64,000 nucleotides of DNA, taken from positions 152,790-216,789 of the forward strand of contig CAYFHS010000002.1 of the NCBI GenBank assembly GCA_964342815.1, in the 5' to 3' direction. The translations under genes and the position numbers were made by a program. This DNA is from an uncultured archaeon. Its GTDB lineage: Archaea > Thermoplasmatota > Penumbrarchaeia > JASLWR01. How positions within the stretch are numbered: the stretch's first letter is position 1; every line of letters starts with the position of its first letter. This document shows, in pieces, positions 1,675 through 58,998 of this stretch. Below the pieces are notes generated by a model, which was given only the letters and a program-made list of their open reading frames with translations, ran no database searches and was not told the origin of the DNA.

Positions 1675-3282
1675 TCAAAATCTCACGGGTTCGCAGAACT
1701 CACCGAACACTTCCCGGAAAACGTTTGCGATCTCACCCACCGTTGCATAAGCCTTGACCGCGTCTATGATATAGGGCATGAGATTCTCGCAGCCGGCTGC
1801 CTTTTCCCTCAGGATATCCAGTTTTTCACTTACCGCCGTATTGTTCCTCTCCGCTCTTATCGTTCGCAACCTATCTATCTGCTCGTCGGTCTTCTCTCTG
1901 TCGTAATCGTGGTACTCCACCGCCCGCTCATCTTCCTCGGTACGATATTTGTTGACGCCGACCTTCGAGATCTCTCCCGACTGTATCTTCCGTTCGGTCT
2001 CGTAAGCCTGCCGCGACACTTCCCTCTGTATGTACCCTTCCGATATGGCTTTGACTATACCGCCCTTATCGGCCACGTCCTTCATGCAGGCTTTTATCCG
2101 TCTTTCGAACTCCCCGGTGAGGGATTCCACGTAATATGAGCCGGCCAGAGGGTCCACGGTGTCTGCAAGGCCCATTTCCTCTACCAGTATCTGCATGGTC
2201 CGCAATGATAGGAGCGCGGCCTTCTTGGAGGGTATGGTATATGCCTCGTCGTAAGAGCACAGCGCCATTGTCTGTGTGCCGCTTAGAGCCGATATCAGTG
2301 CATAGTACGCGCCACGGACTATGTTGTTTTCCGGCTGCTCGATGGTAAGCCCGCCGCCTCCGCCGCCGGCGATCATTTTCATTTTCTGCGCTCTCGGATT
2401 CTCGCAGCCGTAATCGTTCCGGACAATTCTGGCCCACAATCCCCTTGCCGCCCGGAACTTGGCAATCTGTTCGAATAAGTTTCCGTGGATGTCGAAATTG
2501 AACGATAATCGAGCAATGAACGAGTCGGGGTCGAGTCCTCTTAGGAGAACATCGTCTATGTACGCTTTCGCGATTGCATAGGCATAAGCTATTTCCTGAA
2601 CCGGATTGGCGCCGGACTCTCTTATATGGTACCCGCACACGCTCACCGGGTAGTACATGGGCACGTTCCCTGCACAGAATTCTATTGTGTCGGTGACGAG
2701 CCTAATGGACGGTTCAACCGGGTATATCCACGTTCCGCGTCCAACGAACTCCTTCAGTATGTCGTTCTGTGCGGTCCCCCGGAGGCTCTCCAGCGGAACT
2801 CCACGCTTTTCCGCTATGACAAAGTACATGGCCATCATTACAGAAGCCATGGAATTGATGGTCAGGGACACGCTTATCCTGTCTATGGGTATGTCCCGGA
2901 AGGCTTCCTCCATGTCCTTCAGCGAATCTATGGCCATCCCCACTCTGCCAACCTCGCCAAAGGCCCGGGGGTCATCGGAGTCGAGTCCCAGCTGCGTGGG
3001 CAGATCGAAGGCAACGTTCAGGCCGGTCTGGCCCTGGGAAATAAGATACTTGAAACGCTCATTCGTTTCCCTTGCCGTGGCAAAACCCGAGTACTGTCTC
3101 ATGGTGAATGGACGCGCGCGGTACATGTACTGGTGTATACCTCTCGTAAACGGGAACTCTCCTGGTTTTCCAATATCCTTTTGGTAATTTCGATCAATCA
3201 CATCTTCCGGACCGTAGACCGGCTTGACCTCGATACCGGATTCCAGAACGACGTCCTTCAGTTTTAACTGAGGCCTAGGCAA
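1675..3282 (-). CDS. B12-dependent acyl-CoA mutase, large (substrate-binding) subunit, methylmalonyl-CoA mutase family with divergent active site
   Basis: PGEFPFTRG, TMRQYSGF, LNVAFDLPTQLGLDSD, GTAQNDILKE, GYHIRESGA, DPLAGSYYVE. The track start is 3303; the probable start is TTG 3282, 4 nt after GGTGAT. Confidence 0.92.
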   Translation of the reverse strand: MPRPQLKLKDVVLESGIEVKPVYGPEDVIDRNYQKDIGKPGEFPFTRGIHQYMYRARPFTMRQYSGFATARETNERFKYLISQGQTGLNVAFDLPTQLGLDSDDPRAFGEVGRVGMAIDSLKDMEEAFRDIPIDRISVSLTINSMASVMMAMYFVIAEKRGVPLESLRGTAQNDILKEFVGRGTWIYPVEPSIRLVTDTIEFCAGNVPMYYPVSVCGYHIRESGANPVQEIAYAYAIAKAYIDDVLLRGLDPDSFIARLSFNFDIHGNLFEQIAKFRAARGLWARIVRNDYGCENPRAQKMKMIAGGGGGGLTIEQPENNIVRGAYYALISALSGTQTMALCSYDEAYTIPSKKAALLSLRTMQILVEEMGLADTVDPLAGSYYVESLTGEFERRIKACMKDVADKGGIVKAISEGYIQREVSRQAYETERKIQSGEISKVGVNKYRTEEDERAVEYHDYDREKTDEQIDRLRTIRAERNNTAVSEKLDILREKAAGCENLMPYIIDAVKAYATVGEIANVFREVFGEFCEPVRF

Positions 3283-3673
3283 CTTTATCACCAACCCTCG
3301 CATTGATGAAATTAACTATGTCATTGAAATTGGATCCCGTGGGAAAGATCCCTGCCACACCTAGGGCATGGAGATCATCGAAATCCCTTTTCGGAATGTT
3401 TCCGCCAACGAGTACAATGACATCTTCCATTTTGTTGGCCCTAAGTTTCTCCGTGAGTCCCTTTGTAAGGGGAAGGTGGGCACCGGAAAGTATGCTGAGA
3501 CCTATGACGTTGACATCCTCCTGCAGAGCGGCTTCCACGATATTTTCAACCGTCCGGTGAAGACCGGTATAAATGACTTCGAACCCAGCTTCGATCAATG
3601 CATGCACTATCACCTTGGCGCCCCTATCGTGGCCGTCCAATCCCGGTTTTGCGATTAATATTCTCGTGGGAAT
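3275..3673 (-). CDS. B12-dependent acyl-CoA mutase, small cobalamin-binding subunit
   Basis: RILIAKPGLDGHDRG (DxHxxG), GLSILSGAH, VGG. The track start TTG 3640 truncates the conserved strand; the probable start is ATT 3673. Confidence 0.92.
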   Translation of the reverse strand: MPTRILIAKPGLDGHDRGAKVIVHALIEAGFEVIYTGLHRTVENIVEAALQEDVNVIGLSILSGAHLPLTKGLTEKLRANKMEDVIVLVGGNIPKRDFDDLHALGVAGIFPTGSNFNDIVNFINARVGDKVA

Positions 3674-3693
3674 GATATCACCTGTTAAAATTA

Positions 3694-4860
3694 TTAAAGT
3701 CCTAATTGCCTAGCTATCACATCTTGAAGTATCTCCGAGGTTCCGCCCCCAAACAGCAGGAATCTGGTATCCCGGTAGTATCTCGAAACGGCATACTCAT
3801 TGGAGAAACTGTAGCTTCCGTATATCCGCGTTGCCTGATCAGCTGCGCGGCATGCCACTTCCGAGACGAAATATTTTGCCATGGAAGCTTCCTTGAGGGC
3901 GTTCTCCCCCCTGTCGATCATACCCGTTACATGTTGTATTAAATGCTTGGATGCCTCGATCTCGGTGGCCATGGTAGCGAGTTTCATCCTTATGGCCTGG
4001 AACTTTCCGATAGGTCTTCCGAACTGTTCCCGCTCGGTTGCGTAACGGAAACCGTCATCATAGGCCGCACGTGCGAGGCCGAGACTTAGTGATGCCGTCA
4101 TTACGCGTATCTGGGCCAGTATCCTCATAAGGTTACCGATCCCCCTGCCTTCGTCACCGAGCCTATTTACCAGTGGTATGCGTACGTTATCGAAAGCAAG
4201 CTCGGAAATGATGGATGCCCGGGTTCCGATCTTGTCGAACTTTGGCGATACTGAAAGACCCTCCGTATTCCGGTCGATGAGAAAAAAATTAACACCCTTC
4301 AGTCCTTTTTTCCTGTCCGTTTGACATAGAACGGTGAACATGTCCGCCACCGGGCCGTTGGTGATCCAGGTCTTCGTACCGTTTATGACATATTCGTCAC
4401 CGTCCCGTACCGCGCTGGTTCGTACAGAATTCAGATCGGTTCCGGCATCAGGTTCGGTAAGAGCGAATGCCGCCACCTTCTCACCCCGAATTGCGGGTTT
4501 CAGGTATTTTTCGTGATGTTCGGGCGTACCGAACTTGAAGATGAAATTGGTACCCATTAGAGCCTGCATTGCGGTTATTGCACCGAGACTCATGGAACCC
4601 CGTGCGATCTCTTCGCACATTATGTTGTACAGAGTGGTATTGCCGCCGCCCCCGCCGATCTCCACTGGGTACCTGATGCCGAAAGCGCCGATGTCCGCAA
4701 GCTTTTTGAACATTGGAAATGGGAATTCCTCATTATCATCGATTTCCTTTGCCACAGGGATAATTTCCCGGTCGACGAATCTGGCAATCACGCTTCTCGT
4801 GAGAGCTTCCGTATTTTCGTCGATTTCTTTTGTTGATTTTTCAGCAAATGATATGTCCAT
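3694..4860 (-). CDS. acyl-CoA dehydrogenase family flavoprotein lacking canonical catalytic Glu (candidate decarboxylating 2-carboxyacyl-CoA dehydrogenase)
   Basis: AFALTEPDAGTD, NGTKTWITNG, REQFGRPIGKFQ, ASMAKY, RDTRFLLFGGGTSE. Probable ATG at 4860 (track 4869). The family call is secure; the specificity is inferred. Confidence 0.9.
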   Translation of the reverse strand: MDISFAEKSTKEIDENTEALTRSVIARFVDREIIPVAKEIDDNEEFPFPMFKKLADIGAFGIRYPVEIGGGGGNTTLYNIMCEEIARGSMSLGAITAMQALMGTNFIFKFGTPEHHEKYLKPAIRGEKVAAFALTEPDAGTDLNSVRTSAVRDGDEYVINGTKTWITNGPVADMFTVLCQTDRKKGLKGVNFFLIDRNTEGLSVSPKFDKIGTRASIISELAFDNVRIPLVNRLGDEGRGIGNLMRILAQIRVMTASLSLGLARAAYDDGFRYATEREQFGRPIGKFQAIRMKLATMATEIEASKHLIQHVTGMIDRGENALKEASMAKYFVSEVACRAADQATRIYGSYSFSNEYAVSRYYRDTRFLLFGGGTSEILQDVIARQLGL

Positions 4861-5142
4861 ACAGGGCACCTGTGGTAACAGTAGTAGGAAATTTTTTTAT
4901 TCTTTGTCGTCTTTGGAAAGTTTGAAAAGTATTCTGGTCGTATTTATTTCTTTCTTAACAAAAACATGAATCACCCATATTTTGGGTAAGAGATTAATTC
5001 CCCCGGGTCCGAATCGCAATGGAACTGATGGAATAATCAAGTGAATGTATGGATATACCCCGTGACTTGCCTTCTCACACGGCTGAATATCTACTTAATC
5101 GGGATGCGGTGGGAACGTTTCGGGAGCTACGACAACTTTCTT

Positions 5143-5930: not shown

Positions 5931-8900
5931 TTACTGGATATTTTTTAGATCATTGGACAGCATCTTGTATTCCTCAACGGTAATTTCTTTATTTATCACT
6001 TTTTTCAGTAATTGTTTCATCATATCGTCCGTATCGTCCCAATCGACCTTCACTCCAACCTCTCGTTTTGCCGTCTTTTTGCTATCCTCGATACTCTTTA
6101 TTATTGCTTCCTGGCTTACCCTCGTAACAATATCCTGGTAATCGACTCCGCATTCTGAACATCGCCCGATTTGTATTCCGCACGTGAGATGAGAAATGTC
6201 TCCACAGGGGCATCGGATCGCCTGAAGACCTGCGCTAATGTCGCCATAGCATATTGAACAGGGCATGGAATCTTCCATTTTAAATAACATAGAACGTTTT
6301 ATGGACAAATAAGACGGCTTCTTTCTCAAACTGGGACTAAACATTGTGGGCCGATCTATTTCCTCCTCTGAAAATATCTGTGGAGTGTCTTCTTCGGGGG
6401 GCCGGAAGTCCGGTGGCGGAGGCAGAGGTTTTGTTAGCACAGGTTTAATGTCCATCCTCAATGGTGTTGAAGTTATGATGGGCTGGGTTTGAATGGCGCC
6501 CGGGATCACCGTATTCATCTCAGGAGAGGGCCCCCTTAGCCCTTTATGCTCGGTTAGATGCTCGGGAGGGATGAAAGGAACTGCCTCAACGCCCGGTATG
6601 GAATTAGACGTCACTGGCCCAGGCGGACCGATCGAAGGCAGTTTTCGTGGCCCCTCCCGCTTATTCTCCTCTTTTTTTCTGTTACCTTCATCCCAGGCTA
6701 CATCGATAGTAATGCCAGCTGTCTCCGGTAGAGCCTTTATGTGTTCATCCACCCTCCCAGTTCCCAATTTTGAAGTTTCATCCATAGCGGCTCTCATAAG
6801 CGGTTGCGGATAAGGCCCCCCTCCCGGTATGGTATTGCGTTCCTTTCCAGTACCGGCAGGTGGATGTGGGATGTCTCTAAATTGCTTGTCCATATCTTCA
6901 AGAGACTCTGCCGAGATATCTATTTCGTGCGGGTATTTCTCACCCTCGGTACCACCCCCCGCTTCGTTTTTCGTCATTTTCTGAGAATCCTTCTTGACAT
7001 CCGACGATAAATCTTGTGCCTTTCTTCTTTTTTTAATGAAAATAAGCAATACCAGTCCAACAACCAGCAGTGCAATTAAATTAAGCGGAATCGATATCCA
7101 TAGTGGAACTGTGGAAACTGGATCTGTTCTCCTACCCCCCCCATCATCGGTCACCCCGGGAATCTCATCATCGGGGTCATCGTCCGGCATATCATCATGG
7201 GGAATGGGCTCTTCTTTTCCAGTGGAATTTATTGATATATCGACAAAATCAATGGCACAATTTCCCGCGAGATCCTCCACAGTTAATTTCACGGTATAAT
7301 TTCCTTCTCTTAGGAATATGAAGGACGGAGTAGGATCGAAAAGACGCACGGTAGTATTATTATAGGAAAATGACCAGGTATAGTTTAAAATTCCGATATT
7401 ATCCCGGCTGTTCGTCCCGTTGAAAACTACGTTTTCACCTTTTTTCATCCTGATATTCTCTCCTGCATCAGGAAATGGAGCATCATTATCAGTTACATCC
7501 CGAACAGTTGAGGAAGAAGTTATTAAGTTCCCCGAAAAATCTGAGAACTGGAAATGGTAACCCATCATCGTCGAGTTCATTTCTATCGTAATTGTTCCTA
7601 TCCATTCGTTCCCTTTTTCATGATACAGAAATAATCTGTGATATTCAATTCCATCAGTTGTATAATTGGCGATAGCGGAGAATATTCCCACATTATCTTC
7701 AAGAAGAACCGAGAACGTAAAGGTATCGCCGGTTGTGGGAACCGTAGAGATATTATCTTTTATCAGGACGGGAAATTCATTGTCGTGGACATCTATTCTC
7801 CGTGGGGGACAAGTGTTGAAGTTTGGGGCATTATCCGAAATATGAAAAATATATTCGAGATATACGGCGCTTGAACTGATTTCGATAGTTGAGTTCCAGC
7901 TAAGTTCATTTTGTTTATACATGGATTGACGATAAAAGGTGCTGTTATCAAAAGTGTAATTGACCGAAGCCGAAGTAACTCCGATATTATCGGCAACCAT
8001 GAGAATAAAAGTAAAACTTTCACTGGTTACCGCCAGTTGAGATGTCTGGTCAGAAAGAAATATCGGAACATCATTGTCGCGGACCAATAAGATTTTTGAT
8101 AGGGTGGTGTTTTTATTATTTGCTTTATCTTCAAAATTGAAGAAATAGGTCAAATTGGTCGCACGGGAATTTATTCTAATTTTAAACGTCCACAGTGTTG
8201 AATTGATATTGTTTAACGGGACATTGAAGAAATCCTGGGAGTCAAATGCATAATTTATCCAAACGGAAGAAATATTAATATTGTCAGTAAATTCCGCGGA
8301 AAAAAGAAAATCTTCCCCAGTTGTGGAAGTCTCCGGGGTGTTATCTTTCAAGAGGATTGGCAGGTCATTATCCGTAACGGTAATGTTCCTAGCATCCGTT
8401 ATATTCCTATTTCCGGCAGCATCTCCGAAATAGAAATAATATGTAAAAAAGGTTGCCCAGGATGGTATATCAAGAGTCTTGTTCCATTGCATTGTTTCCA
8501 TATCGAACAACGACTCGTTATGGAATTGAATTCCGTCGAATGTATAGTTTATCAGCACGAAATCGACACGAATATTATCTGCGAAATCCGCCGTGATCTC
8601 GTAACGGTCCCCGGTTGTTGCAGAATTCATGGAATTATCGAGGATCAGTTCGGGTGCATCGTTATCATTGACCAATATGTTACTTCCATGAACCCTTTTC
8701 CAGTTTCTGCCGGCATCGAGTACAGAAAAATGATATGTGAGATTTGTGGCATTTTCAAGAAGCACCGTGTTATTATACCAAATATCGTTATCGTGATGGA
8801 CCAAAGATATGTTATGGAAGATTCTCCCGTTAATTGTATAATTAACCCATACATTGACCACCGCAATATTATCGATAACAGTGGCACTGAAGTTGAATAT

Positions 8901-11900
8901 ATCTCCTGTGGTGGCATTTTTCCAGGTTCGATCGGTTACGAATGTAGGGCTAATATCATCCACGAACGTGATGAATACCAGAGGATGTTCATCTTTGACG
9001 CCCATACCACCATCCACCGAATAAGCTATGTCCCAGGTCACTCCGTTATGGGTTGCAAGGGGATAACGAGATGAGTAATCTGACCAGAAATTCCCTTCAC
9101 CCAAGTTATTATTCCATTTGTTATTGTTACTTCTGTCAAAAGCCTGTACTCTTTCGCCTATATTGGCTATGAAATTATTGTGGTGAATGACATTATTTAC
9201 TGCGTTCTGTTCAATGTAAACGCCATAATTTTTGTTCTCGGAAAATATATTGTAATGAATAATATTATTTTTACTGCTGGTGTTGAGAAAGATTCCATAG
9301 CCGTTGTTCGAACTGAGTGTGTTGTTATTGATAGAATTGTTATCGGACAGCGATACATGAATGCCGTACCCATTATTTGAAGTTATATTATTGTAACTTA
9401 TGCTGTTGTTGGAGGAGGAGTTAATGTATAGACCCTGAGTCAGATCGTATAGATGATTGTAGCGGACGGTATTATTTAAAGCGGATTGAATACATATTCC
9501 CATACGGTCATTGTTTGAGAATATCTTGTTATGTTCGATTATATTTCCACCTGAGCCATTTACCCAGATGCCTTGTTCATTTGTGTTCAGGGTGTTATGA
9601 CGGATGATGTTATTGTTGGAATAAGTTCTCGCTATAATATAAACATCATCTATGTGCCAATAATCAGTACGCCCGCTGCCGTCAGTCTGATATAAACGCA
9701 TCTGGAATGACGAATGGAGTGCTCCGGCCGGCAGGTGAAAAGTAGGTTTATAAATTTGCCCGGGTACTCCATTCCCAAGGTATTGGACAAGATCTTTCCA
9801 CGAGCTCCCTGAATCCTTGTATTGAACCTTAAGGTCATCACCGTTATCCGGATTCTCGCTGAAAGCATCGGACCCTCTTCGAATCCAGCAATTTATGGTT
9901 GCGAAATCGTAACGGCTCAGATCAAGAACCGGCGAGGTACAATAAAGAGATCCTCCCCTTGTGTACATGGATTTTGATCCGGAGTTTGCCGTATGATCGC
10001 TTACTCCCGCAACACCAACACCACTTTTGGACCATGGGGCAAGGGTGCCGTCTTCAAAGTCATCCATAAAAATAATAATACTCTGGTTTAAAAAGACACC
10101 GCATCTGTTCTTTGTCACATTGTTTTCCACTATTGTGTTGTTGAAGGAAAAGTCGAGGTATATGCCGCTCTTTTTGTTCATTTCAACGATATTACCAGTA
10201 ATGGAGTTATTATTGCTGGCCGGTGAAATGGAGATTCCGTTGGTGTTGTTCGAAAAGTTGTTATTCCGGATTGAATTATATTTACTGATATCGAGATGGA
10301 TTCCGTTGTTGCGGTTGCCGTTACAGGTGTTATTTGCCAGTGAATTATTGTCAGAATGGTATAGATGGATGGCATCCTTGTGATTGCTGTTCAATGTGTT
10401 GTTCGAGATGTTGTTAAGTTCGGACGATTCCATAAATATTCCGTATGTCGAGTTGACGCCGCTGTTGAAGCTTATCGAATTCTTAAGTGACTTGTTGAGA
10501 TATATACCGTACTCGTTATCGGAAACGTTGTTATTTGCCAATAAATTGTGGCCGCCCAGCAGAAGATATATGCCCAAATCGTTGTCAGTTACGTTGTTTG
10601 AGGCGATAGTGTTATTGTTGCTGTTGTTGAGATGGATTCCATTTGTATTACCTGTTATGTTATTGTTCTTCAGTAAATTGTCGCTTGAATCCTTCAGATA
10701 TATACCTATTACGCCATCGGTGATTGTGGAATTCGTAAGATTGACATCATGGCAATCGTACAGGATTATCTGTCCCACGTTCGTGGACCCACGTCCCGAG
10801 ATCACTAGGCCGTTAAGTGAGATTCCCCTTTCGTGGCCGTACCATCTTATTGGAATATTATTCACTACATTGGAACTGTTGACGGTGTTATCATAGGCAC
10901 CTTCCCCAGAAAAATAAAAGCCGTATTGGGCATCAGTTTTTATGATGACGTTTCCGTTAAAATCATTGTGGGCCGGGGAACCGTACAGGAGGATTCCGTT
11001 AGTGTTATTTTTGAGGTTATTGTTATTTATCTTATTGAACCGGCTGCTGTATACACTGATACCGTTGGTACAATCTGAACAATTATTGTCGATAATGCTG
11101 TTATTATTGGATTGGAAAATCTTTATTCCATCCTCACTCAGAAATTCGTAGGTATTATTTCGTATGCTGTTATTCCCCCCATATTCAAGGAATATCCCCG
11201 CAGAATTTTTCGATCCCGTATTGTTGTATAGGTTATTGTCGCTGCTATCGTGGAGAAAAATACCGTAATTGTTGTTGGCGCAAGTGTTGTTGTATAAATT
11301 GCTGTAACTTTCCTTATACAGAAAAATACCACGTGTGTTGTTCGAACAGGTGTTGTTCGTAATTTTGTTTTTTCCCCCCGAGGCGAGGTATATTCCGAAA
11401 TCGATGCTGGAATCACATAGGTTTTCCCGAATGATGTTCTCTTCTGATGTTACGAGTCGGATACCTTCTACATTGTCGGAGCAATTATTGTTTTCAATGC
11501 TGTTATTGCTACTTTTCCATATGTGAATTCCGCGTTCATTGTCCGTAAAAGTATTATTGTCAATAATGCTGTAATTTCCTTTATACAGAAAAATGCCACG
11601 TGTGTTGTTCGAACAGGTGTTGTTGGTGATACTGTTGTTTTCAGACAAATTGAGGTATATGCCAAAAGCGGTGTTGGAACCACACAGATTTTTCCGTATA
11701 GTGTTCTTTTCTGATGATACGAGTCGGATACCTTCTTCATTGTTGGAGCAATTGTTGTATTCAATAGTATTATTGGTACTGTTACATATATGTATGGCAT
11801 AGGTATTATTTGAGCAGGTATTATTTACGAGCTTATTACCATTTGAATTGTTTAGTAAAATACCTTGCTGCTTATTCGAGTTGCATTCATTGTCCGAGAC

Positions 11901-13922
11901 ATTATTCCCATAAGACGACTCTATCCGGATACCGGTATGATTTGAAACACAGTAATTTTGTTTGATTGTATTGTTCCCGCCATTATCTATAACCATACCG
12001 TACTCGTTGTTTGTGAAATTGTTATACATGATGTCATTCTTCTCTCCGTTGTTTATGTTGATACCTTGAACATTGTTGTTACAATCGTTGTACTTGACGG
12101 CGTTGTAATCACCATTGAAGATATAAATACCATATTTACCCCAACCGCAGCTGTTGTTGCGAATTGTGTTATTGTCAGAAAACCCCAAGAGGACTGGAAT
12201 CGTACAATTAGTGATGTTCTGATCATAGATTGTAATTTTCGAGCAGTTGGCCAGTATTACCTGTCCGTTGGAATTTGAAATACTACCGGATATCTCGTTC
12301 TTTCTGTAACAAAGAGGCTTATCGTTTATTTTATTAGATGAATCCATCGTATGGGAGTTCCAGTGTTCCAGCGAAGGACCTGTGATAATAAACCCAGTTC
12401 CATTTAGCTTATTCCCCGAAAACGTATTATTGCCACACGATTCCATTAAAATTCCGTTTTTACACTCAGTATCCACCATTGTCGAGTTTATAATAGTGGC
12501 TTTTGGTTCCGAAGCGGAATATTTTCTCATGATAACGATATCGTAGTAACTGTCCATTTCCACGTCTTGTGTCCAATGATCCATAAATGCATCCAAGGTA
12601 ATTTGAAAAGGTCTGTTAAAAGTTTGTATTGTATCACCAAAAGAGGGTGAATAAGTGCCGGACAATTTCTCTGAAAAGATATTTCCCTTTACGATATAAT
12701 TAAATTCAGCCGTTCCGCTCGCGAAATCATTTGGATTATTCAAAATTTTTTGATTTGCATCTTTCGAATGACCAATCGTAACCTTAAAATCACCCCAAAG
12801 ACAAATTGATAAACCAGTGTAATCACCATCATTATCCAATAATCGTAAGCTTTGCATCGACCCGCCCCCTCGATCCCAATCCAAATTAGTCCACCGCCCT
12901 TTGGAAAAAACTGTGAAATTTTCAGTATTGAATTTTTTTTTACTTATGAAACGGTATCCCGACGGTAGATTATTTGATTTCGCATAAACATGCAATTCAC
13001 CCCCTGATACCTGATATGAATGTGTACCTGCTGCAAATTCCGATACGGTCCATTTATTCTGGTTTAAGCTATTTCCACTGAAATCATCGAAAAAATCAAA
13101 CGTTTTGTTTCCATCGCTTTCCGGGTTTGCGTTGCCATCTCCGTATAACATGTACAGTTCGGATGTTCCTTTCAAAGGGATATTCACCCATATTATCGAG
13201 GTCCCTTTTGAGTTCCATTTTTCGATCCAGTAATTCAGTTTGCTCCCGTTGATGTCGTAAAATCTTACGTCATTTCCGCTGCCATTTGCCCTTGAATAAT
13301 TGAAAGTATCTTTATCGAGTTCGATCTTGATCTGATAATCTGCATCGGGTGTCACCGGGTTCAAAAGGATTTTGTTCCGGTAACCCTCAACAACTGATTT
13401 CATCTTGACCGTATTATTGTTTATTATATTGTTATGCGAATCGATCAGGTAGATGCCATTCTGATTTTTGGAGCAATTGTTCTTACTTATCTTACAGTTG
13501 TTAGATTCGAATAGTTTTATTCCTGCATCTGACTCCGCCGCTCCGCTGTTATTGATATGGAACCCGCTCACATTTACCCAACTCGAATTGATATATATTA
13601 CATTGCCGTGACCAATACCGCGGATATTCGTGCCGGTGCTTGCATTTCCCATCAAAGTGATGGATTTATTGATGATCAGATTTTCATTGTAGGTGCCGTT
13701 GTAAACAAGAATAGTATCACCTGCGGAAGCATTGTCGATGGCCCATTGGATATGCGAGTAATCCTGCGTGCCGTTTTTTCCAACCGTAGATGTAGCACCG
13801 TGACTGGAACCAATTGGGCTGAGGATTTCAAGAAATGAGAAATCGAATCCCACAAACATCTGGCTTGTCAATATTATTACAAGCCAGATTGTAAAAATAT
13901 CTTTTTTCATCAATCTCATCAT
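5931..13922 (-). CDS. giant surface glycoprotein: NosD/CASH parallel beta-helix with DUF2341-like and jelly-roll insertions, Ig-like/PKD stalk, TM, Pro-rich tail, C4HC3 Zn finger, SHOCT-like end
   Basis: 2663 aa. Signal peptide; IQWAIDNASAGDTILVYNGTYNENL; dozens of N-N-x-I-x-x-N-x-x-x-x-N-x-x-GI repeats; DVRFYD...LNYWIEKW...IWVNIP; five DN-x-x-V...NYT repeats plus a PKD domain; TM helix; CSIC...CPC...H..C...CSEC. Confidence 0.85.
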   Translation of the reverse strand: MMRLMKKDIFTIWLVIILTSQMFVGFDFSFLEILSPIGSSHGATSTVGKNGTQDYSHIQWAIDNASAGDTILVYNGTYNENLIINKSITLMGNASTGTNIRGIGHGNVIYINSSWVNVSGFHINNSGAAESDAGIKLFESNNCKISKNNCSKNQNGIYLIDSHNNIINNNTVKMKSVVEGYRNKILLNPVTPDADYQIKIELDKDTFNYSRANGSGNDVRFYDINGSKLNYWIEKWNSKGTSIIWVNIPLKGTSELYMLYGDGNANPESDGNKTFDFFDDFSGNSLNQNKWTVSEFAAGTHSYQVSGGELHVYAKSNNLPSGYRFISKKKFNTENFTVFSKGRWTNLDWDRGGGSMQSLRLLDNDGDYTGLSICLWGDFKVTIGHSKDANQKILNNPNDFASGTAEFNYIVKGNIFSEKLSGTYSPSFGDTIQTFNRPFQITLDAFMDHWTQDVEMDSYYDIVIMRKYSASEPKATIINSTMVDTECKNGILMESCGNNTFSGNKLNGTGFIITGPSLEHWNSHTMDSSNKINDKPLCYRKNEISGSISNSNGQVILANCSKITIYDQNITNCTIPVLLGFSDNNTIRNNSCGWGKYGIYIFNGDYNAVKYNDCNNNVQGININNGEKNDIMYNNFTNNEYGMVIDNGGNNTIKQNYCVSNHTGIRIESSYGNNVSDNECNSNKQQGILLNNSNGNKLVNNTCSNNTYAIHICNSTNNTIEYNNCSNNEEGIRLVSSEKNTIRKNLCGSNTAFGIYLNLSENNSITNNTCSNNTRGIFLYKGNYSIIDNNTFTDNERGIHIWKSSNNSIENNNCSDNVEGIRLVTSEENIIRENLCDSSIDFGIYLASGGKNKITNNTCSNNTRGIFLYKESYSNLYNNTCANNNYGIFLHDSSDNNLYNNTGSKNSAGIFLEYGGNNSIRNNTYEFLSEDGIKIFQSNNNSIIDNNCSDCTNGISVYSSRFNKINNNNLKNNTNGILLYGSPAHNDFNGNVIIKTDAQYGFYFSGEGAYDNTVNSSNVVNNIPIRWYGHERGISLNGLVISGRGSTNVGQIILYDCHDVNLTNSTITDGVIGIYLKDSSDNLLKNNNITGNTNGIHLNNSNNNTIASNNVTDNDLGIYLLLGGHNLLANNNVSDNEYGIYLNKSLKNSISFNSGVNSTYGIFMESSELNNISNNTLNSNHKDAIHLYHSDNNSLANNTCNGNRNNGIHLDISKYNSIRNNNFSNNTNGISISPASNNNSITGNIVEMNKKSGIYLDFSFNNTIVENNVTKNRCGVFLNQSIIIFMDDFEDGTLAPWSKSGVGVAGVSDHTANSGSKSMYTRGGSLYCTSPVLDLSRYDFATINCWIRRGSDAFSENPDNGDDLKVQYKDSGSSWKDLVQYLGNGVPGQIYKPTFHLPAGALHSSFQMRLYQTDGSGRTDYWHIDDVYIIARTYSNNNIIRHNTLNTNEQGIWVNGSGGNIIEHNKIFSNNDRMGICIQSALNNTVRYNHLYDLTQGLYINSSSNNSISYNNITSNNGYGIHVSLSDNNSINNNTLSSNNGYGIFLNTSSKNNIIHYNIFSENKNYGVYIEQNAVNNVIHHNNFIANIGERVQAFDRSNNNKWNNNLGEGNFWSDYSSRYPLATHNGVTWDIAYSVDGGMGVKDEHPLVFITFVDDISPTFVTDRTWKNATTGDIFNFSATVIDNIAVVNVWVNYTINGRIFHNISLVHHDNDIWYNNTVLLENATNLTYHFSVLDAGRNWKRVHGSNILVNDNDAPELILDNSMNSATTGDRYEITADFADNIRVDFVLINYTFDGIQFHNESLFDMETMQWNKTLDIPSWATFFTYYFYFGDAAGNRNITDARNITVTDNDLPILLKDNTPETSTTGEDFLFSAEFTDNINISSVWINYAFDSQDFFNVPLNNINSTLWTFKIRINSRATNLTYFFNFEDKANNKNTTLSKILLVRDNDVPIFLSDQTSQLAVTSESFTFILMVADNIGVTSASVNYTFDNSTFYRQSMYKQNELSWNSTIEISSSAVYLEYIFHISDNAPNFNTCPPRRIDVHDNEFPVLIKDNISTVPTTGDTFTFSVLLEDNVGIFSAIANYTTDGIEYHRLFLYHEKGNEWIGTITIEMNSTMMGYHFQFSDFSGNLITSSSTVRDVTDNDAPFPDAGENIRMKKGENVVFNGTNSRDNIGILNYTWSFSYNNTTVRLFDPTPSFIFLREGNYTVKLTVEDLAGNCAIDFVDISINSTGKEEPIPHDDMPDDDPDDEIPGVTDDGGGRRTDPVSTVPLWISIPLNLIALLVVGLVLLIFIKKRRKAQDLSSDVKKDSQKMTKNEAGGGTEGEKYPHEIDISAESLEDMDKQFRDIPHPPAGTGKERNTIPGGGPYPQPLMRAAMDETSKLGTGRVDEHIKALPETAGITIDVAWDEGNRKKEENKREGPRKLPSIGPPGPVTSNSIPGVEAVPFIPPEHLTEHKGLRGPSPEMNTVIPGAIQTQPIITSTPLRMDIKPVLTKPLPPPPDFRPPEEDTPQIFSEEEIDRPTMFSPSLRKKPSYLSIKRSMLFKMEDSMPCSICYGDISAGLQAIRCPCGDISHLTCGIQIGRCSECGVDYQDIVTRVSQEAIIKSIEDSKKTAKREVGVKVDWDDTDDMMKQLLKKVINKEITVEEYKMLSNDLKNIQ
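11300..11800. repeat. intragenic 267-bp (89-aa) tandem duplication within the beta-helix
   Basis: ttatacagaaaaat(a/g)ccacgtgtgttgttcgaacaggtgttgtt recurs at 11314 and 11581; protein NNTCSNNTRGIFLYK occurs twice, 89 aa apart. Confidence 0.85.
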
Positions 13923-18898: not shown

Positions 18899-19250
18899 TA
18901 TTATTCCTACAAACAGTTATCATTTATAATTTTTGTCTTAATGTCGTATAACTAGCAAAATTGACCATTTTTGTAATATTCGAAAACCAACTGGACGTTC
19001 GATTATCATTTCTATTTATCCAACCCGCAGATAAAGATTGGCCGGTATTTTACCGACCTTGGAGACTACCGTCTCCTTTTGTAATCATTTTATTTTTTTG
19101 TCGGGCCTGCGTTTCTTGCGTCGCAGGCCCTTTAGGTAAACAAGTCGTCAATTGTCCCTATATGTCTGTTTTCAATTCGAAATAATAAACAATGTTTTTA
19201 ATCTGTTCTTCCGTTATACGTATCTCCCACAGCAGCCACCGGGTGCCAAA

Positions 19251-20954
19251 ATGAGTGAAACGATCAAAAGAATATCAAAACGATACCGCCGCGTGATTCT
19301 TTTATTCATGTTCTTCACCGGTGTATGCTCCTTTGGTTACGAGGTTCTGTTAGAGCGAGCCGTTGGAATACTCGTTGGCTCTTCATCGGTGGCAATGGGT
19401 CTCATCATATCCACGTTCATAATGGGATACCTCTCGTCGTTCTACTTCGGGAAACTGGCGGACCGCGTCGAATCCAAAAGGAAACTCGTAACCATGCTGG
19501 CAATGCTCGAGTGTCTTATCTGCATCGCCCTCGTTCTCGTGATACCCATTTCGAGATACAGTCTGCTTATCGCCGATTATCTGTCCTACCTCATTTTCTT
19601 CTATTACCTGGATTACTACTACGTGCTTCTCATTACAATAGGCCTCATAGCCCTGATCGTTCCGCTTCTCATGGGCGCGGAGATACCCATTGCCATGAAG
19701 CTTATGGCCTGGGCCGAGAGGGAGGAAGGCCGCGACACCTACGGGGATGTGGGAAAGATATCCGGGAAAATATTCACAGTGGACAGTCTCGGCGCCGGGC
19801 TGGGCGGCCTGCTGACCGCTCTCTTCTTCATACCGTTCCTGGGGAGAACCTATACATCCCTTTTACTGGCCCTTACCACCCTCTGCGCGGGAATGATTCT
19901 TCTTTTTACCCATCAGTGGTACGTTCGCCGCATGGGGTTGGACCGCATACCCGCCGATTTGAAAAAGAATAAAAAAGCACACTACCTCCGGCGGAAGCGG
20001 ACCACAGCCCCCTACAAGATCGCTGTGGTCATCCTCTTCGTGATCCTCCTGATACTGGCAAACATGTCCGAGATCGAGGAAAGATCCATCGACAGGTTCT
20101 ACGGCGGGAACGTTTTATTCCATAAGGACAGCAAGTACCAGGAGATAGTGATCACCCATCACGAACCTGAGGGAACCACACTCTATCTCAACGGGCAGCT
20201 TCAGATAAGCGAGCTTGACGACGCCATGTATCACGAGTTCCTGATCCATCCTGCTCTTGTAACTCATCCGGCTCCCAGGAAGGTTCTCGTTATAGGGGGG
20301 GGCGACGGTGGCGCGGTAGAGGAGATACTGAAACACGATACCGTAATGGAAATAACCTTCGTGGAGCTGGACATCGAAGTTATTAATGTATGCAAGAAAT
20401 ATTTGAAGTCCATCAACGACAACTGTTTCAACGATCCCCGTGTAGACGTGAAGATCACAGACGGCAGGATATTCGTGAGAGACTACGAAGGAGAGAAGTT
20501 CGACGTGGTGGTGGGCGATCTGCCGGACCCCGATACCGAAGCGGTTGCAATGCTGTACACCACCGAGTTCTTCGGGGACGTGAAGAACGTGTTGAAAGAG
20601 GATGGAATATTCGTTTTGCAATCCTGCTCCTGGTTCGAGTATCCGAAGATAACCATGTCCATAGTGGAGACGCTCCACTCGGTCTTTTCGGAGGTCGACC
20701 TTTACCTGTATAACGTGTGGACATACGGCCCTTGGAGTTCAGCCGTGGGATCCGAGAAACTTATACCAAGTAACATGTCCTCGAAAGATATCGATTTTAT
20801 ATTGAACGAGCGCACGGTAACTACGGAATATTACAACGGGGACACCCACAATGCGTCTTTTTCCATGAGCAAGAATCCTTTCCTTGAAAGCGCCCGTAAA
20901 GACGCCAGGATATCGACTATTGACCGACCAATACTGCAGAACCCGTGGGAGTGA
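19251..20954 (+). CDS. speE: membrane-domain (MFS-like) fused spermidine synthase / polyamine aminopropyltransferase
   Basis: N-terminal ~7 TM; SKYQEI, LYLNGQLQ, YHEFLIHP, VLVIGGGDGG, VELD, DGR, DLPDP, LYTTEFF. Probable ATG at 19251 (track 19152). Confidence 0.85.
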   Translation: MSETIKRISKRYRRVILLFMFFTGVCSFGYEVLLERAVGILVGSSSVAMGLIISTFIMGYLSSFYFGKLADRVESKRKLVTMLAMLECLICIALVLVIPISRYSLLIADYLSYLIFFYYLDYYYVLLITIGLIALIVPLLMGAEIPIAMKLMAWAEREEGRDTYGDVGKISGKIFTVDSLGAGLGGLLTALFFIPFLGRTYTSLLLALTTLCAGMILLFTHQWYVRRMGLDRIPADLKKNKKAHYLRRKRTTAPYKIAVVILFVILLILANMSEIEERSIDRFYGGNVLFHKDSKYQEIVITHHEPEGTTLYLNGQLQISELDDAMYHEFLIHPALVTHPAPRKVLVIGGGDGGAVEEILKHDTVMEITFVELDIEVINVCKKYLKSINDNCFNDPRVDVKITDGRIFVRDYEGEKFDVVVGDLPDPDTEAVAMLYTTEFFGDVKNVLKEDGIFVLQSCSWFEYPKITMSIVETLHSVFSEVDLYLYNVWTYGPWSSAVGSEKLIPSNMSSKDIDFILNERTVTTEYYNGDTHNASFSMSKNPFLESARKDARISTIDRPILQNPWE

Positions 20955-34570: not shown

Positions 34571-35338
34571 TCATTCGTCGATCCATTTCGGCGGTCTTTT
34601 TTCTAGAAATGCTTCCAGACCTTCGTTTGCGTCCTTTGTGATCATTAGTTCCTTTAGATAGATATCCTCGATCTTTTTCATAGCCGCATGGTAATTGTTC
34701 ATTGTTCCTTCCAAGAATGCCTTCTTCGTCAATCTGAGCACAACCGCACTGTTACAGGCCAGTTTTCCCGTGATGAACCTTTCAGCATCTTCCTCGAAGG
34801 TATCGAATGAGAATATATGATTTACCAGACCCAGCTCACGGGCCTCATCCGCTTTTATGATCTCTCCCGTCAGAAGCAGCTCCAGCGCCTTCTTATGGTG
34901 CATGAGTTTCGGAAATACCGCGGCGGCCACCGGCGGAAAGACACCTACCTTTATCTCCGGCTGCCCGAACTTTGCCCTGTCCGAGGCAAGAACCAGATCG
35001 CAGAACGCAGCCACCTCGCATCCGCCCCCAAGGGCAGCGCCTTTGACCAACGCCACTATAGGTGCGTCTATGTTGTTCATATTGTGAAAAATATCGTGAA
35101 AGACTTGGATCATCTCTTCAGCTTTGCCTCCCATATGATCGGATACGTCCACACCTGCCGAGAATGCCTTTCCCCTGGCATCCAGCACCAGTATCTTGAG
35201 CTTCCGCCCCTGGAAAGACTTCAACGCGTCGTTTATCTCCTGCATCATTTCGATGTTCAAAATATTTACGGGAGGCCTGTTGAAGGTGATCCTCCCTACA
35301 AGGTCATGCTCATCCACTATGATAGTTTTGTATTCCAT
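34571..35338 (-). CDS. dch: cyclohexa-1,5-diene-1-carbonyl-CoA hydratase (crotonase family, BamR/Dch type)
   Basis: NRPPVNILNI, KAFSAGVDVSDH, ALGGGCE, FGQPEIKVGVFPP. Adjacency to had and oah supports the specificity. Confidence 0.8.
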   Translation of the reverse strand: MEYKTIIVDEHDLVGRITFNRPPVNILNIEMMQEINDALKSFQGRKLKILVLDARGKAFSAGVDVSDHMGGKAEEMIQVFHDIFHNMNNIDAPIVALVKGAALGGGCEVAAFCDLVLASDRAKFGQPEIKVGVFPPVAAAVFPKLMHHKKALELLLTGEIIKADEARELGLVNHIFSFDTFEEDAERFITGKLACNSAVVLRLTKKAFLEGTMNNYHAAMKKIEDIYLKELMITKDANEGLEAFLEKRPPKWIDE

Positions 35339-35457: not shown

Positions 35458-36585
35458 TCATGCGAAATCGGGTGTCAAAACGATTCTTCTCACCAGTTTT
35501 CCGGATTTCGCGTCCTCGAAAGCTTCCTTTATGCCGCTCATAGGTCTTGTCTCAACGAATGGTTTGATCTTTATGGTTCCGTCCAATACCCATTTCAATA
35601 CGTTATCGTAGTATTTCGGGAGACATCCCCAGGTACCGATGATATCAGCATCGAAAGCCATCAAGCGCGATATGCTGTACTGATTCTTCTGCATGCCGAA
35701 TCCTACCACGATTAATTTTCCGATGAAAGACAGCAATGCCAGCGCCATTTCCTGTCCTGCTTTGGTCCCCGTAACCTCGAATATCTTCCATCCATAGCTG
35801 GATGGCAGACCGTTCTGCTTGCAGATTCCTTTGAATTCGTTCTTCACGGCAAAGGCGTCCTTGTCGATGGAGTTGATTACGAAATCCGCCCCGTAATTCA
35901 GGGCGCGTTCGAGCTTTTCCCTGCTGATGTCGATCCCGATGACGGAATTAGCTCCAAATGCCTTGGCCATCTGCGTGACATAAACCCCCACACCCCCTCC
36001 CGTCCCGATTACAATCACGTTGTCTCCAATCCCGAGATCCCCCCTTACGCACGCCTGATAAGGCGTGGTGACCGCATCGGCTATGACTGCCAGTTCCTCT
36101 AGATCAAAACCATCTCGTCCCTCCACGAAACAGAGGTCCTTCACAGGTACCGGAATGTGGCTGGAGTATCCTCCGTAAATCCCAATGCTGTTCCCCGGCA
36201 TTTTCTGGCCAAGGCACCGGTTACCCCTGCCTGCTTCGCATATGGGGCAGTCGTTACACGGCAAAACCGCGGGAATTATTACCTCCCTTCCGATGAATCT
36301 TCCCTCTCCTGCAACGATAACGCCCGATATCTCATGTCCAAGTGTCAAGGGTGGGCCGGTTATCGTGGGGACGCCGTGATAGTAATAGCCCAGGTCGGTG
36401 TGGCAAACACCGCATCCTGCTACTTTCACGAGAACTTCGCCTTCTGATAATTCTGGTACCTGGATCTCCGTGAGCTCGATCAGTCCCTCCGTAATCTTTC
36501 CTGTTTCTCTATCTTTTTTCCAGGGTCGGACCATCTGCCATGTCTTTATCATTTCGGGTAGATCCATCTTTTCCTCTCCTGTCAT
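35458..36585 (-). CDS. had: 6-hydroxycyclohex-1-ene-1-carbonyl-CoA dehydrogenase (Zn-dependent, BamQ/Had type)
   Basis: GCGVCHTD, LTLGHEISG, VIIPAVLPC..C..C...RC..QKMPGN, ADAVTTPYQA, RLMAFDA...GTWGC. Probable ATG at 36567. Confidence 0.9.
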   Translation of the reverse strand: MTGEEKMDLPEMIKTWQMVRPWKKDRETGKITEGLIELTEIQVPELSEGEVLVKVAGCGVCHTDLGYYYHGVPTITGPPLTLGHEISGVIVAGEGRFIGREVIIPAVLPCNDCPICEAGRGNRCLGQKMPGNSIGIYGGYSSHIPVPVKDLCFVEGRDGFDLEELAVIADAVTTPYQACVRGDLGIGDNVIVIGTGGGVGVYVTQMAKAFGANSVIGIDISREKLERALNYGADFVINSIDKDAFAVKNEFKGICKQNGLPSSYGWKIFEVTGTKAGQEMALALLSFIGKLIVVGFGMQKNQYSISRLMAFDADIIGTWGCLPKYYDNVLKWVLDGTIKIKPFVETRPMSGIKEAFEDAKSGKLVRRIVLTPDFA

Positions 36586-36792: not shown

Positions 36793-37935
36793 ATGACATT
36801 AAATTGGTTACCGAGAGAAGATGAGATAAAGAATCATGAGTTGTTCAAGGGAGACGAATATTTCGGAACGGAAGCTCCCTGTACGATGTATGAAAAGAAA
36901 CCTGTACTGGATCCGAAGGGAAATGAAGTGGAAGGACTTTATTCCGCATGGATAACGCTGAATAATCCCCGTCAGTACAATTCGTATACCACCGAGATGG
37001 TGAAGGGAGTTATCGCAGGATTCCACAACGCATCGGTGGACCGGACCGTGGTAGCCGTGGTCTTCACCGGCGCAGGCGACAGGGCGTTCTGTACAGGTGG
37101 CAACACCAAGGAATATGCTGAATACTATTCCAAGCGCTGCAACGAGTACGGGGAGTACATGGAACTGTTCAACCACATGGTGGATGCCATACTCTTCTGT
37201 AAAAAACCGGTTATATGCAGGGTGAACGGTATGAGGATCGCGGGAGGTCAGGAGATTGGTATGGCCGCAGACCTTGCAGTCAGTTCCGATCTTGCGATCT
37301 TCGGGCAGGCCGGACCCAAGCACGGCAGCGCCCCTGACGGGGGCTCCAGCGATTTCCTGCCCTGGTATCTGGGGATCGAGGACGCAATGTGGAACTGCAT
37401 AAGCTGCGAGATGTGGTCCTCTTACAAGATGAAGAGACTCGGTTTCATATCAAAGGCGGTCCCGGTGATCAAGGAAGGGGACAAGTGGATCAGGAATCCC
37501 CAGGTGATCACAGATAAATATGTGGATGACGGCGAGATAGTATACGGCGAGTTCAAGACCGGAGACGAGTTCAAGGAAGCGAGAAAATACGTTTGGAACG
37601 CCAAGACCGACTTCGAGCTTCTGGACAAGGCGGTTAACGATATCATCTGGCGGTTCACGAACCTGTTCCCCGGCTGTCTCATCAAGACCATCGACAGCAT
37701 TAGAGCCAAGAAAAAGTTCTTCTGGGATTACTCCAAGAACTACAACAGGCACTGGCTGGCGGCGAATATGGCCGGAGAGGCATTCCTTGGATTCCATGCC
37801 TTCAACACGAAGAAGATCACAGGCAAGGACACCATCGATTTCATCAAATACCGCCAGCTGATAGCTGAGGGAGCATACCAGGACGACGACTTGTTCGAGG
37901 CCGTTCTGGGAAAGCCGCTGCCGAAAGATGAATAA
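36793..37935 (+). CDS. oah: 6-oxocyclohex-1-ene-1-carbonyl-CoA hydrolase (ring-opening, BamA/Oah)
   Basis: WITLNNPRQYNSYTTEMVKGVI, FCTGGNTKEYAEYY, VNGMRIAGGQEIG, GQAGPKHGSAPDGG: highly characteristic of BamA/Oah. Confidence 0.95.
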   Translation: MTLNWLPREDEIKNHELFKGDEYFGTEAPCTMYEKKPVLDPKGNEVEGLYSAWITLNNPRQYNSYTTEMVKGVIAGFHNASVDRTVVAVVFTGAGDRAFCTGGNTKEYAEYYSKRCNEYGEYMELFNHMVDAILFCKKPVICRVNGMRIAGGQEIGMAADLAVSSDLAIFGQAGPKHGSAPDGGSSDFLPWYLGIEDAMWNCISCEMWSSYKMKRLGFISKAVPVIKEGDKWIRNPQVITDKYVDDGEIVYGEFKTGDEFKEARKYVWNAKTDFELLDKAVNDIIWRFTNLFPGCLIKTIDSIRAKKKFFWDYSKNYNRHWLAANMAGEAFLGFHAFNTKKITGKDTIDFIKYRQLIAEGAYQDDDLFEAVLGKPLPKDE

Positions 37936-58706: not shown

Positions 58707-58998
58707 TTGGCCACGACCTTGTATAACGGACAGTAAAATTAACCAGTATATATCGCTGTTATGCCCAAAATAAGTTTTGGTCCAGGTAATTCCCGTAAAT
58801 AATATGAATGTTAATCCGATTTTTTTCAGTTGTGCGGGGCAATAACACAACTTATACATAGTTAATCCACACTCGGCACGACTAAGTACATACCGTGGGT
58901 GAAGTTGCTTCAATGCCCGATGGGTATTCCTACCAAAACGTTCTTCAGTGCTGAATGATAGCCATTATTGGAATTAATTTACACAGGAAGTTGGAAAT

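Follow-up and report, generated by a model that had tools for sequence, protein, structure and literature searches.

A predicted iaaFGH-type operon for a base-less acyl-CoA dehydrogenase and a glycine-rich B12-dependent mutase in an uncultured Thermoplasmatota archaeon

The window analysed here is a stretch of 64,000 nucleotides from an uncultured archaeon of the phylum Thermoplasmatota (assembly GCA_964342815.1, contig CAYFHS010000002.1, positions 152,790 to 216,789 of the forward strand). On its minus strand, at positions 1675–4869, it contains three genes in the same direction, with gaps that are short or overlapping, which encode an acyl-CoA dehydrogenase (ACAD) and the small and large subunits of an adenosylcobalamin-dependent mutase. 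The gene calls and Pfam domains confirmed the original prediction of a tight operon with this composition. As discussed below, the three genes can with good probability be regarded as archaeal orthologues of iaaF and iaaGH, which would place their predicted products midway in the anaerobic degradation of indoleacetate, a plant hormone (auxin) and a product of tryptophan. The genome under study comprises 4.35 Mb in 116 contigs and is 89% complete (the contig labels C2, C5a, C8, etc. used below refer to it). It encodes ribosomal protein S8e and FttA and is therefore archaeal.

The ACAD contains all three Pfam domains of its family (Acyl-CoA_dh_N, _M, and _1; PF02771, PF02770, and PF00441), with E-values of 1e-26 to 1e-42, and aligned with the ACADs of the PDB with scores of up to 295 bits. 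The start of the large-subunit gene overlaps the end of the small-subunit gene by 29 nt. The small-subunit open reading frame (ORF), as listed, begins with a TTG at position 3640, which lies within the conserved part of the protein domain. The reading frame remains open further upstream, but no ATG, GTG, or TTG precedes the conserved N-terminus RILIAKPGLDGHD there, and a Shine–Dalgarno sequence, AGGTGAT, is followed after 3 nt by an ATT at 3671–3673. The arrangement AGGTGAT-NNN-ATT is kept in a relative, L007 (L007:11150–11160), in which the in-domain TTG is replaced by CTG. For these reasons, the small-subunit gene is most likely to extend over 3275–3673, with a predicted ATT start codon. Its product carries the motif DxHxxG, the established base-off/His-on motif of the B12 mutases, in the form DGHDRG (Table 1).

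The active site of the ACAD deviates from that of its family. Three glycine codons stand in place of the Tyr-Glu-Gly motif that contains the catalytic base, so that the ACADs of the PDB align their (I/V)YEGTS opposite the GGG of the window protein, the C-terminal end of which reads RFLLFGGGTSEILQ. Three close ACAD paralogues in the same genome (C8, C5a, and C12) retain the glutamate, as YEG or GEG, and two more distant paralogues are also present. GGG was found in all 121 of the family members inspected, both close and distant. At the position that we take to be that of the catalytic glutamate in isovaleryl-CoA dehydrogenases, the family has an invariant Ile, and the adjacent residue varies (V, E, R, or Q), indicating that no relocated base is conserved in these proteins. 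The expectation of a dehydrogenase without a catalytic base was thus borne out, insofar as no Glu is conserved at either known position. Because the deviations in both the ACAD and the mutase are kept in more than 100 homologues, they are not attributable to chance.

A dehydrogenase of this type has been characterized in Aromatoleum aromaticum, in which IaaF converts benzylmalonyl-CoA to cinnamoyl-CoA by oxidative decarboxylation (PMC8360864). Every member of the IaaF subclass has GGG instead of YEG, the loss of the 2-carboxyl group takes the place of C2 deprotonation, and the reaction is irreversible (PMC8360864). The window ACAD resembles IaaF in its fold, in the replacement of YEG by GGG, and in the position of its gene beside those of a two-subunit B12 mutase, and other genes of indoleacetate catabolism are encoded alongside it in relatives or dispersed in its own genome. 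It also shares with glutaryl-CoA dehydrogenase an FAD-dependent oxidation that would be coupled to the loss of CO2. However, glutaryl-CoA dehydrogenase keeps YEG (Glu370) and loses its gamma-carboxyl group in a second step (PMC8360864), whereas the window ACAD lacks the base and its predicted leaving group is the alpha-carboxyl.

The mutase large subunit was aligned with HMMER to the methylmalonyl-CoA mutases (MCMs) of P. shermanii (1REQ) and humans (2XIJ) and to HcmA, the large subunit of 2-hydroxyisobutyryl-CoA mutase (4R3U); residues are numbered here as in MCM. The window mutase has the same fold as the MCMs (365–384 bits, with the human enzyme at 384 bits) and retains Tyr89 (RQYSGF), Arg207 (GRG), and Tyr243–His244 (GYH), in addition to the DxHxxG motif of its small subunit. 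In contrast, the canonical HxQT(S/A)GxSLT and HTN segments are both replaced. The segment IAGGGGGGLT occurs where the MCMs have HxQTSGWSLT (HSQTSGWSLT), and Ala-Leu-Cys (ALC) occurs where they have His-Thr-Asn. The score against the NCBIfam equivalog model of MCM (PRK09426) was 510 bits, with a cut-off of 876 bits. HcmA was the best-scoring solved structure, at 481 bits, and HcmAB is likewise split into two subunits, but the carboxylate-binding positions are occupied by Ile and Gln in HcmA, which also has HCQTAAATLT, and by Tyr and Arg in the window mutase. As these two residues are kept, the window mutase should bind a carboxylated substrate, as expected for the dicarboxyl-CoA substrate of IaaGH. 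The alignments to all three structures agree with the predicted combination of retained carboxylate-binding residues and a Gly-rich pocket.

The Gly-rich segment was matched by a regular expression in 102 of the 121 mutase homologues. The mutases of the iaa-type clusters in Desulfobacterales, which are 55–60% identical to the window mutase, carry a variant signature consisting of RQYTGF, GRGAW, G[IL]FGGGGSG[LM]T, and QTTALCS. Both the Gly-rich segment (IAGGGGGG or FGGGGSG) and the ALC segment run through the whole clade of the window mutase, and we found no published description of these signatures. That an aryl group gains space from the Gly-rich and ALC replacements is something we infer, since a literature search on the roles of Gln330 and Asn366 of MCM yielded nothing usable. 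If so, the substitutions offer concrete residues with which to consider how B12-dependent acyl-CoA mutases accommodate an aryl substituent.

The genome encodes three mutase large subunits. The one on C10 is a canonical MCM, with HTQTAGCSLT, HTN, and the Tyr/Arg pair, and its gene adjoins an epimerase-like gene; the second, at C8:34316–36010, is of the isobutyryl type (Phe/Gln). The window mutase scored lowest of the three with the Pfam model (634 bits, compared with 782 bits for the C10 protein). Given that a canonical MCM, an isobutyryl-type mutase, and Glu-keeping ACADs are all encoded elsewhere in the genome, the window operon is not the housekeeping set. Approximately 40 kb from the isobutyryl-type large-subunit gene, at C8:76012–79652, the genome contains a second ACAD gene with a normal YEG motif, together with genes for EtfB, EtfA, and a B12-binding small subunit.

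Phylogenetic trees were constructed from 74 ACAD sequences and from 69 mutase sequences, the latter including representatives of 50%-identity clusters from an exhaustive search; neither tree includes named IaaF or IaaGH references, and the mutase tree is without a named ethylmalonyl-CoA mutase. The GGG ACADs formed a single clade (Shimodaira–Hasegawa-like approximate likelihood ratio test [SH-aLRT] support, 100), on a long branch away from the YEG paralogues of the genome. Within it, the window ACAD paired with that of L007 (100) in a clade of eight members (97), most of which had a mutase, CoA-transferase, or molybdenum enzyme in the flanking DNA examined. The window mutase fell in a clade of 13 members (99) composed solely of Gly-rich/ALC proteins, among them the mutases encoded in complete bacterial clusters. 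A separate clade of 14 members (96) held the canonical MCMs and the isobutyryl-type mutases, including the paralogues of the genome itself. The window mutase therefore did not cluster with the ordinary MCMs, a placement that the original prediction had named as part of what would refute it.

These observations bear on the possibility that the operon encodes an ordinary MCM and a beta-oxidation ACAD with a relocated glutamate, serving propionate or branched-chain metabolism. In its favour, Pfam and NCBIfam name only the MCM family and a generic ACAD, and Tyr89 and Arg207 are retained. Nevertheless, the separate clade and low Pfam score of the window mutase, the presence of a true MCM beside an epimerase-like gene on C10, the absence of a conserved Glu at either base position among the 121 ACAD relatives, and a gene context in relatives that is of the iaa type rather than the propionate type make this explanation highly improbable.

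Close homologues of both proteins are very numerous. Those of the mutase are at least 70% identical and those of the ACAD at least 62% identical, and they come from Thermoplasmata, Desulfomonile, and Aminicenantes, among other groups. A scan of genome contigs, with one genome per species and relatives confirmed by the patterns RFLL[FY]GGGT and AD[EQ]ATRI[FY]G, identified GGG-type ACADs in at least 423 species. A tblastn search of PLSDB with both proteins returned only generic ACADs and MCM-family genes with identities of 51% or less, and no named iaa genes. The gene context was counted at the best 80 of the 423 or more loci, many of which lie on truncated contigs; the surrounding ORFs were clustered, and the recurrent clusters were named according to Pfam. 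These 80 loci belonged to Thermoplasmata, Methanomassiliicoccales, Desulfobacterales, Desulfomonilaceae, Syntrophales, Bacteroidota, Planctomycetota, and Methylomirabilis. The most frequent neighbours were the electron-transfer flavoprotein (ETF) subunits EtfA (51/80 loci) and EtfB (40/80), followed by the mutase large subunit (35/80), a GntR regulator (33/80), the mutase small subunit (30/80), a family III CoA-transferase (27/80), the FAD subunit of a molybdenum dehydrogenase, accompanied by the 2Fe-2S and Mo subunits (19/80), and a PaaK-type CoA ligase (16/80). Genes for TRAP (binding-protein) transporters and a hydantoinase A/B pair of approximately 700 and 600 amino acids also recurred near the GGG ACADs.

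In Desulfobacterales, the usual gene order was CoA-transferase, EtfB, EtfA, ACAD, GntR, mutase small subunit, mutase large subunit, a transporter or the hydantoinase pair, ligase, and molybdenum enzyme. Judged by protein families, the composition of these predicted clusters matches that of the published iaa cluster. In the iaa operon, IaaGH, the phenylsuccinyl-CoA/benzylmalonyl-CoA mutase, is encoded beside IaaF, and IaaL is a CoA-transferase (PMC8360864); IaaCE is a pair of hydantoinase-like hydrolases of 707 and 564 amino acids (PMC8453981). The recurrence of EtfA and EtfB is in line with the statement that an ETF is an additional component of the iaa operons in strict anaerobes and in Ferroglobus placidus (PMC8360864).

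The nearest relative, L007, is also an uncultured archaeon, and its proteins are 83–85% (ACAD) and 86% (mutase) identical to those of the window. In L007, the genes for the Mo large subunit, 2Fe-2S subunit, and FAD subunit, CoA-transferase, hydantoinase B, hydantoinase A, a small ORF, the ACAD, and the mutase small and large subunits are contiguous. Among the genomes of 37 species in its class, six had orthologues of the Gly-rich mutase (74–92% identity), and these six included the congeneric genome and one of the family's two remaining genera; the other genomes in this set had only mutase paralogues with identities of 50% or less. The module is accessory in this lineage.

Not all loci with a GGG ACAD are organized in this way. 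Approximately 20 loci in Desulfomonilaceae and Syntrophales (L013, L015, L019, L022–L031, and others) join the ACAD only to EtfB and a ferredoxin-domain EtfA, besides an ATP-grasp_5 protein and a conserved protein of 250 amino acids that matches no Pfam family. These loci contained no mutase within 10 kb, and this EtfBA-ACAD subclade may work differently or may have its partner genes elsewhere. In the Thermoplasmata chromosomes CP070726 (L002:10001–14479) and CP070751 (L006:10001–12388), genes for a MaoC hydratase and a short-chain dehydrogenase/reductase (SDR) are located near the GGG ACAD gene, either between it and the mutase genes or after it with no mutase nearby. Their placement fits beta-oxidation of the enoyl-CoA product.

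The genome was searched with the proteins of L007, and the families were confirmed with Pfam and NCBIfam. Orthologues of the iaa-type genes of L007 were present with 48–88% identity. As the original prediction had placed the rest of the iaa cluster outside the window, and had proposed a search of the genome for the molybdenum enzyme, hydantoinase, and CoA-transferase, it is relevant that all three were found: the hydantoinase pair and CoA-transferase on C2, approximately 142 kb from the window operon on the same contig, and the molybdenum dehydrogenase on C15 (Table 1). The dehydrogenase genes on C15 are followed by a glyoxalase-fold gene that resembles that of an epimerase, and its product would accord with the enantiospecificity that has been described for IaaF. 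Three ETF pairs were also found in the genome.

The original prediction had further suggested that benzoyl-CoA genes 30 kb from the operon would take on its product. Had and Oah both exceeded their equivalog cut-offs, and an enoyl-CoA hydratase best matching Dch is encoded beside them (Table 1). The route is extended by a Bzd-type class I benzoyl-CoA reductase encoded by four genes on C31, the fourth of which specifies an activase-type subunit. The bzd genes are followed by one for a large NAD(P)-binding Fe-S protein with similarity to HoxU and to the small subunit of glutamate synthase.

Together, these results support the predicted IaaFGH-like module in an archaeon. The GGG of the ACAD is the published IaaF signature, the contexts and clades of its relatives are of the iaa type, and the remaining pathway genes and the benzoyl-CoA genes are present, although scattered, in the genome. 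The mutase is similar to IaaGH in its separate B12-binding small and large subunits, its DxHxxG domain, and its adjacency to an iaaF-type gene, and it falls outside the clade of the MCMs and isobutyryl-type mutases; the relatives of the window ACAD, like IaaF, are encoded with CoA-transferase, molybdenum-enzyme, hydantoinase-like, ligase, and ETF genes. Unlike the module of A. aromaticum, that of the window is predicted from its genes and has an archaeal host; its iaa-type genes occupy at least three loci rather than one operon, and the vicinity contains neither an ETF gene nor a ligase gene.

By homology to the A. aromaticum system, the two-subunit mutase would bind B12 via the histidine of DGHDRG in its small subunit. 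In the large subunit, Tyr89 and Arg207 would hold the free carboxylate of (2-aminophenyl)succinyl-CoA, and the Gly-rich and ALC segments would give space to the aryl group as the substrate is rearranged to (2-aminobenzyl)malonyl-CoA. The FAD-containing dehydrogenase, with GGG in place of Glu, would then release the 2-carboxyl group as CO2 rather than abstract the C2 proton, yielding 2-aminocinnamoyl-CoA, with one of the three ETF pairs of the genome as the putative electron acceptor. Beta-oxidation would convert this product to 2-aminobenzoyl-CoA and acetyl-CoA, and the Bzd-type reductase, the Dch-like enzyme, Had, and Oah could take on the former. We infer the substrate, direction, and electron acceptor of this scheme from the genes present.

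Several points weigh against this assignment. Orthology to the characterized IaaF (CAI07262) and IaaGH is a prediction from the motif, the gene context, and the tree in the published work, and both of our trees were built from quick searches with SH-aLRT support only. To our knowledge, the specificity residues of IaaGH have not been mapped. The dispersal of the iaa-type genes, which are contiguous in L007, means that they may not be co-regulated. A PaaK-type indoleacetate-CoA ligase was not found with PF14535 or tblastn, which in a genome that is 89% complete does not imply its absence; no ETF gene adjoins the window operon, and no MaoC or SDR genes for beta-oxidation were found in the genome with the queries used. 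Furthermore, because some subclades had no iaa-type neighbour in the DNA examined, the GGG-ACAD family may not be monofunctional.

Some of these points would also suit the same chemistry acting on a substrate not derived from indoleacetate, such as phenylsuccinate or benzylmalonate from another aromatic compound, or alkyl- or methylsuccinyl-CoA in C5-dicarboxylate or alkane catabolism. The window operon has no iaa-type neighbour, no PaaK-type ligase was detected, the family is very widespread, the ACAD is linked only to EtfBA in Desulfomonilaceae, and in other Thermoplasmata it is joined to MaoC and SDR genes whether or not a mutase is present. In addition, IaaF weakly accepts some medium-chain alkylmalonyl-CoAs (PMC8360864). 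On the other hand, the genome and L007 both encode the hydantoinase-like pair and molybdenum dehydrogenase, which are specific to the opening of the indole ring and in L007 stand directly beside the ACAD and mutase genes; most loci of the eight-member ACAD subclade contain a mutase, CoA-transferase, or molybdenum enzyme; and a benzoyl-CoA pathway is available for an aromatic product. A different substrate is therefore unlikely. The suggestion in the original prediction that the module might act on a new substrate is likewise not supported, because iaa-type enzymes for ring opening and hydroxylation are present, as expected if the module serves indoleacetate breakdown of the usual kind.

The module might alternatively run in reverse, with a flavin- and ETF-driven reductive carboxylation of enoyl-CoA and CO2 to alkylmalonyl-CoA, which would be rearranged to a substituted succinyl-CoA, as an anaerobic analogue of crotonyl-CoA carboxylase/reductase and ethylmalonyl-CoA mutase. 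The set of ACAD, MaoC, SDR, and mutase genes in some Thermoplasmata parallels PhaB-CroR-Ccr-Ecm, the enzymes of the ethylmalonyl-CoA pathway, and in many bacteria the ACAD gene is flanked by genes for ETFs that include a ferredoxin domain. However, the clade to which the window ACAD itself belongs has a catabolic, iaa-type context, the IaaF reaction is irreversible, and the ETFs of the iaa operons of anaerobes are described as non-bifurcating (PMC8360864), so reverse operation is very unlikely. An ethylmalonyl-CoA-type reading based on the operons with ACAD, MaoC, SDR, and mutase genes was likewise set aside, given the context of this clade.

The assignment to the indoleacetate pathway does not carry the novelty that had been implied, because the published tree of IaaF orthologues already contains a Thermoplasmatales protein (EMR74870) and a Ferroglobus placidus protein (WP_012966786) (PMC8360864). 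The module is of a type already described, and the window provides one more archaeal example; the known chemistry is unchanged by these findings. What is added is the conserved signature of the mutase, the wide distribution of the pair across at least 423 species of both domains, and the splitting of the cluster within a genus. The genome, which is Thermoplasmata-like in its nearest database matches, adds an archaeon with good support for anaerobic indoleacetate breakdown, and it also encodes a Bzd-type benzoyl-CoA reductase. As hundreds of anaerobic species in two domains have the base-less ACAD paired with the Gly-rich mutase, the breakdown of tryptophan-derived indoleacetate, or of related arylsuccinates, in anoxic sediments may be far commoner than would be expected from the few isolates studied. 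More speculatively, there is a small chance that the Gly-rich and ALC pocket is an undescribed specificity signature of a large cross-domain group of succinyl-CoA mutases for bulky substituents, paired with base-less decarboxylating ACADs, in which the subclades without iaa-type neighbours, and possibly the scattered archaeal copy, use other 2-carboxyacyl-CoAs. If this were true, substituted succinates would have a general path into beta-oxidation under anaerobic conditions.

Table 1. Predicted features of the operon and of the associated pathway genes. Positions are those of the window unless a contig is given; alternative locus coordinates are in parentheses.
Feature	Position	Strand	Details
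iaaF-type ACAD	3694..4869	-	391 aa from GTG 4869; other start ATG 4860
GGG codons in place of the Tyr-Glu-Gly catalytic-base motif	3742..3750	-	FLLFGGGTSEI, 3730-3762, re-translated
iaaG/H-type mutase small subunit, B12-binding	3275..3673	-	~132 aa; PF02310; TIGR00640, 131 bits
Cobalamin lower-ligand motif DxHxxG, small subunit	3620..3637	-	Reads DGHDRG; re-translation
iaaG/H-type mutase large (substrate-binding) subunit	1675..3303	-	542 aa; PF01642 MM_CoA_mutase, 634 bits; TIGR00641
IAGGGGGGLT segment instead of HxQTSGWSLT of MCM	2344..2373	-	HMMER alignment, re-translation
Ala-Leu-Cys instead of His-Thr-Asn of MCM	2257..2265	-	QTMALCSYDEA vs QSLHTNSLDEA (LHTNS to MALCS)
Hydantoinase A, hydantoinase B, family III CoA-transferase	C2:9484-14478 (L087:7482-12542)		81%, 88%, and 70% identity to L007, respectively
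Molybdenum dehydrogenase	C15:79602-83345		Identity to L007: Mo large subunit 80%, 2Fe-2S subunit 69%, FAD subunit 48%
Glyoxalase-fold gene following the molybdenum dehydrogenase	Locus C15:79602-83785 (L088:7588-11789)		Best NCBIfam match methylmalonyl-CoA epimerase, 90.7 bits, below cut-off
Enoyl-CoA hydratase, best match cyclohexa-1,5-dienecarbonyl-CoA hydratase (Dch)	34571..35338	-	TIGR03189, 179.9 bits, below cut-off of 292.5
6-hydroxycyclohex-1-ene-1-carbonyl-CoA dehydrogenase (Had)	35458..36585	-	TIGR03201, 464 bits, cut-off 338.65
6-oxocyclohex-1-ene-1-carbonyl-CoA hydrolase (Oah/BamA)	36793..37935	+	TIGR03200, 566.5 bits, cut-off 464.45
Four-gene Bzd-type class I benzoyl-CoA reductase	C31:39288-43450 (L090:3288-7450)		BzdN, BzdO, and BzdQ above NCBIfam cut-offs

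Elsewhere in the window, the minus strand contains four very large ORFs, at 5931–13922 (2663 aa), 42333–46826 (1497 aa), 48376–50934 (852 aa), and 50925–58913 (2662 aa), all of which probably encode surface proteins. The ORF of 2663 aa contains NosD, beta-helix, and DUF2341 domains and PKD repeats, and a Pfam scan gave no match for those of 1497 and 852 aa. Other genes of the window encode a WD40-repeat protein of 949 aa (14026–16875), two tandem long proteins of 600 and 580 aa with C-terminal spermidine-synthase domains (19152–22687), and a serpin (22791–24086).

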